DNA from: a phage
Sequence record: OZ413489.1
DNA length: 64,000 bases
Direction: 5' to 3' (one strand)
Position numbers and translations under genes: made by a program. The notes beneath the pieces were generated by a model. The model did no database searches. It was not told the origin of the DNA and saw only the letters and a list, made by a program, of their open reading frames with translations. This document shows, one piece after another, positions 19,126-63,580 of this stretch. Numbering within the stretch: the first letter of the stretch is position 1; the number at the start of each line of letters is the position of its first letter.

Positions 19126-19132
19126 TTATCGG

Positions 19133-19230
19133 TGTGTAAACAGTCAATCATGTAAATGGTTAGCATGTGAACAATCAGGAATGTAAACAATCCAGTGTGT
19201 AAACTAATAGGTGTGTAAAAGTGTCATGTT
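19133..19230. repeat. iteron-like array of six tgtaaac-type direct repeats
   Basis: gtgtgtaaacag, atgtaaatgg, atgtgaacaa, aatgtaaacaa, gtgtgtaaact, gtgtgtaaaag at 10-20 bp spacing. Confidence 0.55.
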
Positions 19231-19364
19231 GTGTCAGTTAGGTCACATTATGTCAGACAAGTTTTTCTCCTCTTTGTCAAGTGCTGCATGAAAAATTTAC
19301 AAGCTTGTATGGTAGCATTTTTGCGGCCCTGTTTACATTCAGTAATGTATGTATAATCCTTGTT

Positions 19365-19527
19365 GTGTGGGCGTTTAGACGTCTAGACGGTTGGAAGTCC
19401 ACAGGTCAATATCTAATCTATCGGCTGCTAACTATATCCCACACATGTGTGGGCGTTTAGACGTCTAGACGGTTGGAAGTCCACAGGTCAATATCTAATC
19501 TATCGGCTGCTAACTATATCCCACACA
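19365..19527 (+). repeat. perfect tandem duplication of an 81-bp unit (82-bp period)
   Basis: Unit gtgtgggcg...tagacgtcta...cccacaca twice; 7-bp terminal inverted repeat gtgtggg/cccacac; tataat hexamer at 19351-19356. Confidence 0.8.
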
Positions 19528-19789
19528 AATAGTAAGAAATATGATTGTTATATGCGTAAACTGTAACTCATGTTATCAATCCCTGTATGGATCGCCAGTG
19601 GTGCGCATAATAGGTATTATGTTAAATTGCCCGTAATGATAACAGTTCTCACAATGATAGGTATTCTCATTCATCCACACAAAATAGGTTGCAAATGTTG
19701 TGCCACTGTGTGAACGGCCTGGCCTATTAATTTCTCTCACTGCCTCGATATTTGAGAATTGTTATAAGAATGAGAAGTATTCCCATTCC

Positions 19790-20130
19790 GTCCGCCTGGC
19801 AGCACTCCTGTAGGTCCTGCAAGGACTCTAGCTGAAAGCTAGACCCTTCGGGCCTCCCTGTAGGTCAGGTCAAAATCGTGGTAGAATTGGGCCTGTTCAG
19901 ATATTTCTGGCTGACTCTTCAGGTCTGTGTGGGAAAAGCCAACCTCTCCGGCGGGGCAGGGGGTCATGACGGGAAAATTGCAGGTCAATTAAAAAATTTA
20001 CGTGGTGTATGAAGCGCTCTTCAGGTAAGGCATGTATTATGGGATGAAACCCTCTTCAGGCAATGATATTTGTGGGTGTGATATTTGCTGGAAAGCCAGA
20101 TATGACGGGACTCCCGGCGGGGATGGGGTA
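19790..20130. repeat. GC-rich segment with recurring short motifs
   Basis: ctcttcagg x3 (plus one at 20465), ccggcgggg x2, cctgtaggtc x2, atgacggg x2. Confidence 0.55.
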
Positions 20131-20823
20131 GTACAGACAGGGAAAATATGAGAATGTAGTTGGGGAAATTGATCAGACAGGTAGAGTATGGAATATGTTA
20201 CAAGTATGTTAAATATGGAGGTTGAATATCTGTAGGATTTGTGTGTAAAATCAAAGACTTAAGGGGTGTTGTGGTATTTTCTATAAATAATTCAAGTTTA
20301 ATAGGCAATATTTGTCTCTATCCGCTTTGTGTGGTAAACAGATTCAGATTAGATTGGTTTACAAGTGTATACATAATATACAAATTAAAGATACAAGAAA
20401 CCCCCCTCCCCCTTCGGCTACCATTCACCTTTTCCTCTGACTGGTACTTAAACACTTATTCAGACTCTTCAGGTTATCACCCATATATCATATGGCAGTG
20501 ACTGGTGTCCTCCGGCCCCTCTTTCGTCACCCGTCCGCTTCGCCATGCTAATGCCATAGCCAATGGTTCGGTTGTTCACTCTGTTCACTCAGGTGTATCT
20601 CCATACCCCTTCAAACCGAAGAGAACAGAAAACCCGAATTACTCGGTAAAAGAAAAGAGAAGAACTTAATTTTATCAGGATAGGCAAGAATGTCAAGGCA
20701 TGACTGCTCACTAAACAAGCAAACAGTCATGTGTGGAAGGTAAGTGATTGTGGTGGTGGGAAATTTAGTTGAAAGATGTGTTATAGGTGCTCCCAGCACT
20801 TTAGCCGGGTAGCTAATTGTGTG

Positions 20824-58758: not shown

Positions 58759-58801
58759 TTTGTCAGTCTATCCTGCCACACAAATAACCTAGTGTCAACA
58801 C

Positions 58802-59878: not shown

Positions 59879-60229
59879 ATGAAAGATGGGGATAAGCTGC
59901 TATATCTTAAAGTCCCCCTTGAAATACTGTCTATGTCAAAAGTTTTGAATGACACAACTGGAGAGGTTGTTGTTCTTGACTTGTATGACAAGATCGTATA
60001 CTGCTACCTGCACAACTGGTATAAGCTTGGAGGAAATTCACGCTTCACACCCAGCACAAGGAAAATTGCAGCAGATGTTGGGATAAAGAAAACAAAAGCA
60101 GCAGCGTGCGTTAAAACTTTAGAGTGTGCAGGGGTGGTTGAAACATCCACACAAGGGAGAGGTAAAAGATGCACATTTTCCAAAGTTTTGCCACCAGAAG
60201 AAGTTATTCGGATGTCAACAACTGGTTAG
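59879..60229 (+). CDS. winged-helix DNA-binding protein (replication-organizer or repressor-like)
   Basis: PSTRKIAADVGIKKTKAAACVKTLECAGVVE resembles HTH of phage replication initiators; operator array immediately downstream. Confidence 0.5.
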   Translation: MKDGDKLLYLKVPLEILSMSKVLNDTTGEVVVLDLYDKIVYCYLHNWYKLGGNSRFTPSTRKIAADVGIKKTKAAACVKTLECAGVVETSTQGRGKRCTFSKVLPPEEVIRMSTTG

Positions 60230-60288
60230 ACCAGTAAAAACTTAAATATCTGTACTATAAGGATTCGTATGTTTTATGTTCGCCATGG

Positions 60289-60386
60289 AACGGATACTAT
60301 TAACTGTCCGTGATACGGACACTACTGTCCGTCACGCGGACACATCTGCCCGTAATACGGACACTAACTGTCCGTGATACGGACAC
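60289..60386 (+). promoter_or_regulatory. array of four palindromic operators (ctgtccgt-N3-acggacac)
   Basis: Copies at 60304-60322, 60325-60343, 60346-60364, 60368-60386; 21-22 bp centre-to-centre. Confidence 0.7.
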
Positions 60387-60529
60387 ATAAAGAATATAAC
60401 TAAAATAACTAAATAATAAAAAATAAAAGATCTAGTACTTATGGTACTAAGTACATATACTTAACTTATGTAGAATATACTAGATCCTAAGTACCATGTT
60501 TTAAATTTATTACTTACTATGGGCAGTGT

Positions 60530-60790
60530 CGGCCCTTCATTGGCACTCGCCTACGAGGGGCGAGATGCCGTGCCTCCTTGGTGTACACAATAACAGAAGT
60601 GCATACATGCAGGTCTGTTAACATGTGTGGGAGCGAAGCGATAGCGCAGGCCAAAGGCCGAGCACTGCTGTGGACCACCGACGAAAGCTTGCCAGCGCCG
60701 TAAGGAGTCGGTTGAGAGTCTCCCGCGCGAGCTTGGATGAAGTTTATGTGTGGAAACTGACAAGAAGGTCCCTAAATCGCTCCACAGCCA
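60530..60790 (+). other. GC-rich hairpin-dense island; candidate structured RNA or leader
   Basis: Sharp composition shift; multiple stem-loops; only ORF is antisense and non-protein-like. Confidence 0.3.
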
Positions 60791-60889
60791 TGTAAACTAT
60801 ACCAAGTAAGGCAATCGCACCAGTTTGATAGAAAAGCTCGTTACAAAGCGATACAGTGAGTTTTTCTATAACTTGAAGAGGAGGCAGCT

Positions 60890-61468
60890 ATGAGTCCACG
60901 CAAAGATGACCGTGAAAAGATTGCAAAACGTTATCAGAATGAAGAACAGATGGAGAAAACTTTCAAGTGGAAGCCAGGTTTCCAGCGTAATCATTCTAAC
61001 GCTCGTGATCGTAAGCATCCGGATAAGTGGTTAACACCGCCAAATGATGGCATGCAGGTTGGGGATGAGAAGGAGCTGTCACCTGGAAAAGATGGCAACT
61101 ACATTCGCACTAAGGAAGCAGGTCCAAAGGATGACAGCTATCTTGTAGATAAGGTTCTTGATGGTATTGATGTAGATGTTGACACTGCACGAAACCTTTT
61201 TCTTGGTTGGTATCGTACAGGGTTTTTCGACATCAAGGCTATTCGTCGTGTTTGTGATATTAAAAAGTCTGCATATGATGATGACTCTCTACATCGCACT
61301 CTGAGACAATGCTCAGAGAGATACGGTCATCCAGTTATCACTCTTGACGATATTAACGAAGTGATGTATCATGCAGAGGTTGTTGCAGGTAGATTCGGTG
61401 ATGCATATCTCGGTATTCTTTCTGCAAAAGATGAGGTAATGTTAAATAAAATTTACTATGAACGCTGA
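60890..61468 (+). CDS. hypothetical protein
   Basis: 192-aa ORF, RBS gaggagg. Confidence 0.65.
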   Translation: MSPRKDDREKIAKRYQNEEQMEKTFKWKPGFQRNHSNARDRKHPDKWLTPPNDGMQVGDEKELSPGKDGNYIRTKEAGPKDDSYLVDKVLDGIDVDVDTARNLFLGWYRTGFFDIKAIRRVCDIKKSAYDDDSLHRTLRQCSERYGHPVITLDDINEVMYHAEVVAGRFGDAYLGILSAKDEVMLNKIYYER

Positions 61469-62039: not shown

Positions 62040-62300
62040 TTTATCTCTGGATGCTTTGAAACAGGGTTCGGAGAAGACTGAGTTCCCCTTAGAGGGCTTG
62101 ATAGTGCACCACACTTAAAATGGTAGGGGCAGCCAGCACATGACGATGTGACCCCAGCCAACCTGTAACAAGGTCGAGCCGAAGCGCGGGTAATAGGCCT
62201 CTGGTAACCCACTTGTTGGGTCTTGCTGGCCCAGGACGCTGGACAAGTCGCAGGGAATACCACCCTGCGGCGAACTTGACAATCAGTATTTGCTATGATA
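62040..62300 (+). other. GC-rich island; candidate structured RNA or leader
   Basis: Composition shift; stem-loops; in-frame extension upstream of ATG 62333 looks non-coding. Confidence 0.3.
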
Positions 62301-62332: not shown

Positions 62333-62671
62333 ATGGCGGATACAACTAAAAAGCGTCGCCGTAGAGGCAGACCTCTGAAAGAGGAGTCCAACGCCATTCA
62401 GCTAGAGAAGAACATCCTTGATATGAAGGAATCTTTTATAGCGATGGTTCCAGAAGCTCACAAAGTTTTAAGAGAGCTGATGTTGGACCCGAAAACCAAA
62501 CAAAATATTCGTCAAAGCATTGCAGAGTATGTTCTTGATAAGGCAGACCGAATGCAGGAAGAATATGATGAGATGTTTGGTGAAGAGGAAGAGGTGGTAG
62601 TGGAAGAGGCTGAAAAACCAGCACCTTTTATGCCATTTACTACAGAAATACAGCCTGTTAGCAATAGCTAA
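62333..62671 (+). CDS. AT-hook-like basic/acidic DNA-binding protein
   Basis: N-terminal KKRRRRGRPLKE (RGRP AT-hook core) and acidic C-terminus; RBS ggagga. Confidence 0.55.
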   Translation: MADTTKKRRRRGRPLKEESNAIQLEKNILDMKESFIAMVPEAHKVLRELMLDPKTKQNIRQSIAEYVLDKADRMQEEYDEMFGEEEEVVVEEAEKPAPFMPFTTEIQPVSNS

Positions 62672-62767: not shown

Positions 62768-62842
62768 GCCCTGTTAGCTTAGTGGATAAAGCAGCGGCCT
62801 TCTAAGCCGTTGACACTGGTTCGAGTCCAGTACGGGGTGCCA
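62768..62842 (+). tRNA. tRNA-Arg (anticodon UCU)
   Basis: Cloverleaf folded by hand; loop cttctaa; TTCGAGT T-loop; encoded CCA. Confidence 0.75.
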
Positions 62843-62846
62843 AATT

Positions 62847-62933
62847 GGGGAGTTATCCCGTAGAGGTAGCGGTGTAGACTGTAAATCTATTGTCATTGCG
62901 ACTCGGGTGGTTCGACTCCACCACTCCCCACCA
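62847..62933 (+). tRNA. tRNA-Tyr (anticodon GUA), long variable arm
   Basis: Perfect acceptor ggggagt/actcccc; loop ctgtaaa; encoded CCA. Confidence 0.75.
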
Positions 62934-63047
62934 AATTTATATTTTTAGATGCATAAATAATACAGATAATGGCATTGATATTTATCGTCGTTTATACTAG
63001 TCACTAACTGCTCGAAAATCAGTGTCATTATCAGTATAATTTATAAA

Positions 63048-63138
63048 GGAGGGTAGGGAGCAATGGTGCTCAAGCGGTCTTGAAAACCGTCCCGTTGAGG
63101 ATGACTCGATGATGGTTCGATTCCATTACTCTCCGCCA
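63048..63138 (+). tRNA. tRNA-Ser (anticodon UGA), long variable arm
   Basis: Anticodon arm gcggt-cttgaaa-accgt close to E. coli tRNA-Ser(UGA); encoded CCA. Confidence 0.7.
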
Positions 63139-63236
63139 CATTGTTGACCTTGTAATTAAGCGAAAGCCGGAAGCAGAACCGGATTATCAAATGTTACAGT
63201 CGTCATCGCCGACTAGCAACATGGTCAACATGCTGA

Positions 63237-63335
63237 GCTAGGTAAGCCCTTTGGCAAGGGCGAGGATTTTTAATCCTGAAAATAGACGAGGTAGTCGTTG
63301 AATACATAGGTGGTTCGATTCCATCACCTAGCACC
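63237..63335 (+). tRNA. tRNA-like gene with aberrant anticodon arm
   Basis: Acceptor gctaggt/acctagc, D-arm and T-arm fold; anticodon region is either a 5-nt loop or a 4-bp stem with loop tttttaa; 3' end is CC then T. Confidence 0.35.
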
Positions 63336-63340
63336 TTTTT

Positions 63341-63416
63341 GCTGATGTAGCACAATCGGTAGTGCAATTGATTTGTAATCAATAGGTTGTAGGTTCAAAT
63401 CCTGCCATCAGCACCA
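63341..63416 (+). tRNA. tRNA-Thr (anticodon UGU)
   Basis: Perfect acceptor gctgatg/catcagc; loop tttgtaa; encoded CCA. Confidence 0.8.
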
Positions 63417-63417
63417 A

Positions 63418-63492
63418 GGCCCTGTAGCTGGAAGGTTCAAGCAAGCGACTCATAATCGCCAGACGGTGGTTCAATTCCACCCAGGGCCACCA
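63418..63492 (+). tRNA. tRNA-Met (anticodon CAU; could be Ile-lysidine type)
   Basis: Perfect acceptor ggccctg/cagggcc; loop ctcataa; encoded CCA. Confidence 0.75.
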
Positions 63493-63503
63493 AATAGTAA
63501 ATA

Positions 63504-63580
63504 CTCCGCGTAGCTCAGCTTGGTAGAGCGCCTGATTTGGGATCAGGAGGTCGAGTGTTCGAATCACTTCGTGGAGACCA
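63504..63580 (+). tRNA. tRNA-Pro (anticodon UGG)
   Basis: Anticodon arm cctga-tttggga-tcagg; canonical D-arm; encoded CCA. Confidence 0.75.

Follow-up and report, generated by a model that had tools for sequence, protein, structure and literature searches.

A conserved, folded, non-coding GC-rich element adjoins the putative replication origin of rV5-like phages and is shared with small phage-like plasmids of Escherichia coli

What a GC-rich, hairpin-dense island does in a 660-nt gap between two phage genes is the question raised by this locus. The initial annotation had placed the island at 60530-60790 of the window (the whole stretch of 64,000 nt from record OZ413489.1 that was analysed here) and had considered a structured 5′ leader, a small RNA or a remnant of acquired DNA. 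The window comes from the genome of a Vequintavirus (rV5-like) phage of E. coli; the 671 nt across the intergenic region share 99.4% identity with Escherichia phage JohannBauhin and 88-99% with 119 Vequintavirus (rV5-like myophage) records. From about 58800 onward all genes are on the plus strand, in the order polynucleotide kinase, phosphoesterase, a 116-aa DNA-binding protein, the gap with the island, a 192-aa protein, small ORFs and a tRNA cluster. The analysis below indicates that the island is a conserved, non-coding, folded element adjoining the putative replication origin of rV5-like phages. It probably aids the start of replication or expression at this origin-like locus, because small phage-like plasmids of E. 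coli, 13 kb in size, also have this element next to their origins.

The sharp shift in composition reported at the outset was reproduced: the GC content in 200-nt windows is 0.54 over 60500-60799 and 0.35-0.41 on either side. By segment, it is 0.67 in module A (60526-60577), 0.63 in the core (60623-60731) and 0.59 in the whole island, whose limits were refined to 60526-60731, versus 0.21 in the AT-rich stretch to its left and ~0.42 in the flanking genes. The first limits therefore enclose a real island, but the conserved functional part is shorter, and 60732-60799 is a poorly conserved tail with many variable columns among 16 distinct phage sequences. The island ends 159 nt before the ATG at 60890, so that it does lie upstream of that gene, as annotated. 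The many local stems noticed by eye also held up when the region was folded. The plus-strand RNA of 60515-60800 reached -110.1 kcal/mol, compared with -92.9 +/- 5.2 in dinucleotide shuffles (z = -3.3), and none of 200 shuffles was as good. The minus-strand RNA of the island region gave z = -2.3, and the plus strand folded with DNA parameters was still significant (z = -2.8). Both the energy and the z-score were lower on the plus than on the minus strand, in the phage as well as in the plasmid islands. The features of the locus are collected in Table 1.

Table 1. Features of the island and of its two neighbours, in window coordinates; sequences of helices are given as RNA
Feature	Position	Strand	Description
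116-aa winged-helix protein, putative origin-binding initiator	59879-60229	+	Assigned with PHROG and Pfam
Four tandem iterons	60301-60386		22 nt each, spacing 21, 21 and 22 bp; dyad GTCCGTnnnACGGAC in each
AT-rich stretch, putative DNA-unwinding element	60387-60523		137 bp, GC 0.21, has GATC sites
Module A, outer stem	60531-60535 with 60570-60574	+	GGCCC with GUGCC
Module A, inner hairpin	60542-60551 with 60559-60569	+	GGCA-CUCGCC, loop UACGAGG, GGCGAG-A-UGCC
Variable middle hairpin	60593-60618	+	ACAGA..UCUGU around UGCA-UACA-UGCA
Core	60623-60731	+	P1, hairpin, and P5 with two mini-hairpins; helices from RNAalifold consensus
P1, closing helix	60625-60633 with 60720-60728	+	GUGUGGGAG with CUCCCGCGC; RNAalifold: GUGUGGG(AG)/(CU)CCCGCGC
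Core hairpin	60649-60659	+	GGCC-AAA-GGCC
P5	60677-60682 with 60707-60712	+	ACCGAC with GUCGGU; encloses mini-hairpins GCU-UGCC-AGC and CC-GNRA-GG
Invariant 26-nt block	60682-60707	+	CGAAAGCTTGCCAGCGCCGNAAGGAG, unchanged in every relative
Poorly conserved tail	60732-60799	+	Includes CCCTAAATCGC; 63% identity to L004, versus 82% for the island
Leader of the 192-aa gene	60800-60889	+	Highly conserved; 89% identity to L004, with a ~70-nt near-identical block
Leader hairpin, 13 bp	60828-60869	+	AUAGAAAAGCUCG..UGAGUUUUUCUAU, present in the MFE fold
Shine-Dalgarno sequence and start codon	ATG at 60890	+	AGAGGAGG, then ATG, 3′ of the leader hairpin

The initial annotation had proposed covariation in homologous regions as a check, and we analyzed this with an alignment of nine phage and plasmid sequences, whose island versions are ~84% identical between phages and plasmids. 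The proposed structure has 48 pairs, and 97.1% of the cells are paired. Changes on both sides were observed in 7 pairs, compared with 1.2 +/- 0.9 in column shuffles (none of 500 reached 7), and most of them stem from one deep split, between phage and plasmid type, plus L004 (IMG/VR 3300010279_000001, a divergent 137-kb viral contig whose island is 82% identical), so that they represent few independent events; the plasmid cores are near-identical to one another. In a control with the partners slid by 1-3 columns, only 0-2 pairs had both-sided changes. Module A has 15 pairs over 60531-60574; in plasmid L008 two of them change from G-C to U-A on both sides and none is broken, the inner hairpin reading GUCA-CUCUCC...GGAGAG-A-UGAC instead of the GGCA-CUCGCC...GGCGAG-A-UGCC of the phages. 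Among the 16 distinct phage sequences module A is unchanging, except for one C.U in this window. In P5, three of the six pairs show a compensatory change (ACCGAC/GUCGGU in phages versus GCUGCC/GGCAGC in plasmids), and the outer pair forms a series, with A-U in most phages, G.U in phage Aya and L004, and G-C in the plasmids. This outer pair competes with a mini-hairpin, GUG-GAC-CAC, which has a U-A / U.G / C-G series of its own, and the inner three pairs of P1 are broken in some sequences. The core tetraloop varies within GNRA only (GUAA or GGAA). The middle hairpin has one A-U to C-G compensation in L004, and it is dispensable, since an 18-nt deletion takes out its 5′ arm in rV5 and Pr121LW. 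Across the 16 phage sequences 38 of the 107 unpaired columns vary, as against just 5 paired columns outside the middle hairpin. Judged from these comparisons, the island is under structural constraint, with its helices kept by compensatory changes. It is not a decaying remnant of acquired DNA, although the part of that suggestion which invoked acquisition stands in one respect, since the element is shared horizontally with 13-kb plasmid-like elements of E. coli.

The folded strand appears to be the plus strand, because P1 has two U.G pairs that never vary and P5 passes through G.U intermediates, all of which can form on that strand alone and would be A.C mismatches on the other, and because the plus strand also folds better. 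As to its chemical nature, the GNRA loop and the cUUCGg loops, the latter located in extra hairpins of the plasmid islands and elsewhere in the phage, lean toward RNA, but the many 3-nt loops would suit DNA, and the fold is significant with DNA parameters too. For the core, a covariance model (R1) found exactly one copy per genome, scoring 132 bits in the window and 100-112 in the plasmids; no second copy was detected in the window, and none in 76 kb of Klebsiella Mydovirus KB57.

Is the island coding? The initial annotation had seen no sense-strand ORF; in fact short plus-strand ORFs of 31, 41 and 56 aa overlap the island, but the 56-aa ORF, the one annotated elsewhere, lacks coding conservation. 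This ORF (60625-60795) is 'ORF 78' in rV5 and has also been annotated in ECML-10 and in BASEL phages, and of 16 phage sequences checked for this frame, 14 keep it open. It starts with GTG without a Shine-Dalgarno sequence, however, and L004 has it truncated; most of its variable sites are non-synonymous (TAVDH, TNVDH, TNAGR and others), and its conserved blocks are unchanged at all three codon positions. The invariant 26-nt block would be translated as RRKLASA in the phages, as AESLPAP in plasmid L008 and as PKACQRR in plasmid L018. The island is taken to be non-coding because this block falls in three different frames in different relatives, and a coding signal was sought in the homologues in vain, in line with the first reading of the region as non-coding. 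The idea that ORF 78 is a real small protein-coding gene, to which we give hardly any credence, was rejected, since neither its frame nor its amino-acid sequence is conserved among homologues.

The failure to recognize a known RNA family by eye was borne out by systematic scans. With Rfam 15 (4,227 covariance models), no match to the island reached the gathering score in a search of the whole window, and the matches elsewhere in it were six tRNAs and a group I intron. At E<=10, a search of 60200-60950 gave chance-level matches, the best being rli43 with 22.9 bits versus a gathering score of 100; the rli43 match lies mostly over the AT-rich stretch. The plasmid island gave only chance-level matches to eukaryotic snoRNAs and lncRNAs at the same threshold. 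The families left unmatched include those of sRNAs, protein-binding RNAs, plasmid replication RNAs and C4/CI. ARAGORN placed no tRNA or tmRNA gene in the island; its seven genes in the window are all within 62768-63580. The island is thus a structured motif with covariation support that matches no catalogued RNA family, new as an element but of a general kind that is known.

The plus-strand helices of the island start ~10 nt or less from the AT-rich stretch. The 116-aa protein matched PHROG 12838, 'replication initiation protein', with E = 5e-80, and more weakly the initiator families phrog_8102 and phrog_428, as well as Pfam DUF6945 and HTH_36; in relatives it is annotated as 'replication initiation protein' or 'putative transcriptional regulator'. 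The iterons are entered as repeat_region in several records and were found in all the rV5-like relatives read. Inside the AT-rich stretch, on the minus strand at 60420-60432, the 13-mer GATCTTTTATTTT agrees perfectly with the oriC 13-mer consensus GATCTnTTnTTTT, as does no other site in the 64-kb window; it is present in a single copy, versus three in oriC. The hallmarks of an iteron origin were observed at 60301-60523: at least three direct repeats of ~17-23 bp with helical-repeat spacing, an adjoining AT-rich stretch with 13-mer-like sequence (one copy), and a cognate initiator gene beside the iterons that co-varies with them in the comparison with L004. This locus, directly to the left of the island, looks like a lambda-like iteron origin, an assignment that is putative and made from sequence features. 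Skew analysis in the rV5 genome paper left the replication origin unplaced (PMC3606486), so that the assignment contradicts nothing in that paper.

The comparison with L004 separates the island from its neighbour. The initiator homologue of L004 is 28% identical, and its repeats are five unrelated 20-nt repeats; over the initiator, the repeats and the AT-rich stretch the DNA identity is 46-47%, no better than that of unrelated sequence. On the flanks it rises to 90% in the left-hand gene and to 82-89% across the island and leader on the right-hand side. Since the initiator and the iterons have been replaced together between flanks that are 82-90% identical, they have the pattern of an initiator-iteron specificity cassette. 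The swapped cassette, which includes the AT-rich stretch, ends exactly at the start of the island. Initiator and iterons are hence swapped between relatives, and the island is retained. In L004 the island has been inherited together with a near-identical leader hairpin and the 192-aa gene.

The distribution of the island was then analyzed in several collections. In a blastn search of 5,426 complete E. coli genomes the island was found on four small plasmids and had no chromosomal match, and host-derived DNA as its source was rejected on this absence. On the 20,395 replicons of the complete E. coli genomes, which we take to include F- and R1-type plasmids, blastn detected no similarity except on the 13-kb elements, and among the 72,556 plasmids of PLSDB, apart from the 13-kb elements, only a single phage genome entered as a plasmid matched. 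PLSDB and metagenomes added further island-bearing plasmids, and pattern scans of metagenomes added three more phage-type contigs with the island. Among 50,697 phage records the island is the only DNA shared with the plasmids, and it is shared with Vequintavirus alone. The IMG/VR collection was scanned with three patterns; the matches of the first were read in context and two of the second were checked with the covariance model, and the 58 matches of a 14-mer scan stand outside the covariance-model screening. GTDB species representatives and JGI/ENA metagenomes were covered by pattern scans filtered by context. True matches of the pattern scans were rV5-like phage contigs and 13-kb plasmid-type contigs only, which is weak evidence for absence elsewhere because exact-pattern scans miss diverged relatives. 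The flanking proteins led to no distant syntenic loci, both being restricted to the same ~120 phage records.

The plasmid-like elements are circular, of ~13.2-13.9 kb, and one record of 39.6 kb is a trimer. They carry genes for an HK97-like major capsid protein, a Dit-like tail protein, a neck protein, a 706-aa tape-measure protein, a 303-aa O-like initiator and several small proteins. Neither annotation nor family scans of 15 proteins revealed a recognisable terminase or portal, and no dedicated primase gene was recognisable. The best phage relatives of the tape measure are those of the Vequintavirinae, at ~25% identity. No tblastn match to the capsid protein was found in the phage collection; its homologues in a large protein database are all from E. 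coli and at least 82% identical, and they therefore add no divergence for covariation. The capsid family comprises 18 clusters, of which one has 441 members, mainly on contigs 13.4-14.3 kb in length. An aminoglycoside-resistance transposon has been acquired by one element. No plasmid protein has a significant match in the window, and none is homologous to the 192-aa protein; a 24-nt plasmid-phage match (519-542 of plasmid L010 with 19747-19770 of the window) failed a database-scale search and was discarded. Literature searches turned up nothing relevant on satellites or plasmids linked to rV5 or the Vequintavirinae, on the plasmid protein accessions or on Vequintavirus non-coding RNAs, and this family of 13-kb plasmids with capsid and tail genes is apparently without a published description.

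In the plasmids the order and orientation are as in the phage, with iterons, AT-rich stretch, island and genes following one another. The iterons number 4-7 copies at 23-bp spacing and differ in sequence between plasmids, and the AT-rich stretch has 13-mer-like GATC repeats, with a one-mismatch 13-mer at 13212-13224 of L010. The plasmid islands are modular: ahead of the constant core, copies of (U)GUGUGGG enclose one to four different small hairpin cassettes, depending on the plasmid. They are flanked by a weak promoter-like site and two terminator-like hairpins, all on the minus strand, the hairpins adjoining the island on its left. Downstream of the island come strong sigma-70-like promoters, which belong to the operon with the O-like initiator gene.

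From this arrangement we tentatively favor the reading, to which we assign a probability of roughly 0.4, that the island is an origin-coupled single-strand accessory element that acts on the plus strand, as a transcript or as a priming site. The initiator would open the AT-rich stretch, and the adjoining island would then fold, either as a read-through plus-strand RNA or as the exposed plus DNA strand. The folded island would be recognized by a factor common to all these replicons, for which the host or phage primase-helicase, RNA polymerase or PriA are candidates, and this would yield either a primer or R-loop or a site for helicase loading, so that the island would couple origin opening to the start of DNA synthesis. 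This reading is favored because the structured element follows directly on iterons and an unwinding stretch, in one and the same orientation, in two unrelated replicons, and because the island is kept while the initiator specificity changes. It is weakened by L004, where the island travels with the leader and the 192-aa gene, so that a leader role fits equally well, and by the lack of similarity to other elements on the 20,395 E. coli replicons. Furthermore, a single common factor is not obvious, because the rV5-like phages encode their own gp4-like primase-helicase (PMC3606486) and the plasmids persist without the phage. We regard as unlikely a further step, in which the 13.5-kb elements would be satellites of rV5-like phages and the island the shared cis-acting handle of a helper-satellite pair; the elements would then have copied the island so that the phage replisome replicates them, or to compete with it.

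The main rival, possible but on the whole doubtful, is that the island is a structured cis-acting mRNA leader or intercistronic element within a long plus-strand unit that starts near 58800. It could protect the RNA, direct its processing, act on the translation of the 192-aa gene or render RNA polymerase resistant to termination, and its presence in the plasmids would reflect a shared regulatory logic ahead of their own operon. The structure is indeed on the mRNA-sense strand, the neighbouring genes are all on the plus strand, and the GNRA loop of the core and the cUUCGg loops are typical of RNA. Genes 81 to 27 of rV5 have been proposed to form one transcription unit, with this stretch as its start (PMC3606486), and no intrinsic terminator separates the upstream gene from the island; neither such a terminator nor a sigma-70-like promoter was found in 60230-60890, leader included. 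A CTAAAT sequence in the tail was considered as a late-promoter-like motif and rejected, since the motif (CYCTAAATNGC) is not enriched in the window. The inheritance in L004, where the island has stayed with the leader hairpin and the 192-aa gene and not with the initiator cassette, also speaks for a leader. However, the promoters of the plasmid operon lie downstream of the island, which is thus outside the primary leader of that operon, and a homologue of the 192-aa protein is missing from the plasmids. In addition, the island stops well short of the ATG, with the next 68 nt poorly conserved, and a leader role would leave the adjacency to iterons and AT-rich stretch in two unrelated replicons as a coincidence or as shared ancestry.

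The island might instead be an independent trans-acting RNA, which would be processed from a read-through transcript and either bind a protein or act as a decoy, or else give rise to an sRNA; the phage would use it to manipulate its host, and the plasmids to sense or interfere with the phage. The stable RNAs encoded next to the tRNA genes of T4 are a model for a processed RNA of this sort, and here the island lies 2 kb upstream of the phage tRNA cluster. The compact multi-branched fold and the invariant 26-nt region at the three-way junction suggest a specific binding partner, and the element is common specifically to Vequintavirus and the 13-kb elements. Yet neither a sigma-70-like promoter nor an intrinsic terminator of its own was found, and it is present in one copy per genome and is without an Rfam match among sRNA and protein-binding families, and we consider this explanation improbable. 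Still less credible, to the point of being very unlikely, is a protein site in duplex DNA (a pac signal copied by a satellite, or a partition or resolution site) or an antisense copy-number RNA from the minus strand. Plasmids without a recognisable terminase would need the packaging site of a helper if they were satellites; the motif TGTGTGGG, with 14 copies in the window versus 2.06 expected, is seven-fold enriched on both strands, as expected of a DNA motif; and the two terminator-like hairpins to the left of the plasmid island would suit a minus-strand RNA. A duplex site, however, would not be expected to keep its hairpins by compensation (5 pairs in two helices, with none broken) or to vary freely at structure-neutral positions while its stems do not. 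A minus-strand RNA would have its G.U pairs turned into A.C mismatches, and the phage has no minus-strand terminator at the equivalent place.

Phage typing and therapy draw on the rV5-like phages, a large group, and this locus provides for them a concrete candidate origin, composed of initiator, iterons and unwinding stretch, together with an unusual structured partner. Through the island, a lytic phage of 137 kb is also connected with small E. coli plasmids that recur as a family and bear capsid and tail genes. Should phage and plasmids interact, the best-studied bacterium would have yielded a new helper-satellite system, and one in which unrelated replicons share an origin accessory while swapping initiator specificity. 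If the satellite reading is true, the island would be the first of a new class of structured origin-coupling elements of RNA or ssDNA.

Known systems offer several points of comparison. In the ori of phage lambda, four dyad-symmetric iterons within the O gene are combined with an AT-rich stretch and the O initiator. The left neighbour of the island resembles it in its four dyad iterons, AT-rich stretch, winged-helix initiator and co-exchange of initiator and iterons; on the other hand, the phage initiator is just 116 aa here, and lambda is not known to have a structured GC-rich element of 200 nt beyond its AT-rich stretch. With HK022 put, which consists of two hairpins, ~70 nt in total, directly downstream of its promoter, and with the P4 CI RNA, the island has in common that it is a folded sense-strand sequence in the early region of a phage or satellite that could act in cis, but the plasmid island is upstream of the operon promoters and the C4/CI families of Rfam were unmatched. 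RNA-primed origins are exemplified by ColE1 with RNA II and RNA I, by the primary origin of T7 and by oriF and oriG of T4. A folded transcript next to the origin could likewise form a primer or R-loop here, although no sigma-70-like promoter placed to start such an RNA was found, no match to a plasmid replication RNA was found in Rfam, and the phage locus has an initiator protein and iterons, which ColE1 is not known to have.

Single-strand initiation signals (ssi) are nearer in layout. In the G-site of R1/R100 and the complementary-strand origin of phage G4, a structured single-strand signal downstream of the opened origin is where the primer is laid. The island is comparable as a structured signal downstream of an origin that is conserved across different replicons, but it differs in having no blastn match in E. 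coli genomes and plasmids beyond the 13-kb elements; no sequence kinship to characterised ssi was seen among the 20,395 E. coli replicons and 72,556 plasmids. At the oriV of RSF1010 (IncQ), iterons bound by the initiator are followed by a GC-rich and an AT-rich stretch and then by ssiA and ssiB, strand-specific hairpins that are active only when single-stranded. The island locus shares the layout of iterons, AT-rich stretch and strand-specific hairpins beside the origin, in this case plus-strand helices supported by covariation. It has no sequence similarity to RSF1010, and whereas ssiA and ssiB are single hairpins of ~40 nt on opposite strands that serve the plasmid's own primase, the island has ~200 nt and several helices on one strand. 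The RSF1010 ssi, the R1 G-site and the ColE1 primer RNA may thus be regarded as analogues of the island in layout, rather than as members of one family with it.

The core of the GC-rich island has homologs, situated beside iterons, in a recurrent family of circular E. coli elements of ~13.5 kb, i.e., L010 (NZ_CP020521.1, whole 13,689 bp), L017, L018, L019, L009, L122, L143 and L252. These elements encode HK97-like capsid, Dit-like, neck and tape-measure proteins together with an O-like initiator, and they carry about 3 kb of non-coding, hairpin-dense DNA. Neither a terminase nor a portal was recognizable in them, as would be expected of phage satellites or minimal phage-plasmids. Within the family, one record (39.6 kb) is a trimer, and one copy has gained strA/strB-type resistance genes. 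No description of the family was found in a literature search.

Relatives of the island region were also present in public records under other names. The 18 'Campylobacter phage' GenBank records MG0656xx are rV5-like coliphage genomes, with 95-98% identity over this region, and CP057073.1, a PLSDB 'plasmid' of an E. coli assembly that matches the island, has a length (137.6 kb) consistent with a rV5-like phage genome.

The coordinates of the other features are collected in the table. The motif TGTGTGGG was observed 14 times in the window, on both strands, vs 2.06 copies expected (0 of 100 shuffles). It often adjoins hairpins located immediately 5′ of genes, and the hairpin cassettes of the plasmid islands are also separated by it.

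Features of the window
Feature	Position	Details
Group I intron	243-478	Rfam RF00028, 64.7 bits, E = 4e-14
TGTGTGGG, examples of the 14 sites	14641, 17582, 19364-19527, 19926, 21143, 60624	
82-bp direct repeats (two)	19364-19527	inside ORF-poor stretch 19130-20240
13-bp hairpin	60828-60869	immediately 5′ of Shine-Dalgarno of 192-aa gene
Second GC-rich intergenic island	62040-62275	GC 0.545; strong predicted fold
tRNA-like gene, 99 nt	63237-63335	ARAGORN: 4-base anticodon, type '???'

The second GC-rich island, which had no match in Rfam, is 92% conserved in the divergent 137-kb viral contig L004; it lies 5′ of the gene at 62333-62671 and of a promoter close to consensus at 62276 (TTGACA-17-TAAAAT). 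The 13-bp hairpin, a possible site of processing or of translational control, is essentially identical in L004, in which the 192-aa gene is only 84% identical.

A group I intron was detected near the start of the window. The large terminase gene of rV5 is reported to be in separate segments (PMC3606486). The tRNA-like gene scored 35.5 bits with Rfam and is annotated in relatives as a 97-nt tRNA-Lys; it is perhaps a tRNA with an intron or one resembling frameshift suppressors.

The stretch 19130-20240 extends for >1 kb without any ORF of at least 60 aa. In addition to the direct repeats, it holds the palindrome CCCACACATGTGTGGG, small hairpins, CCCTTCGGG among them, and recurring CTCTTCAGG motifs. 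The covariance model of the island core had no match in this stretch. It is probably the 'non-coding' box of the rV5 genome figure, and it is similar in style to the non-coding region of the ~13.5-kb plasmids.
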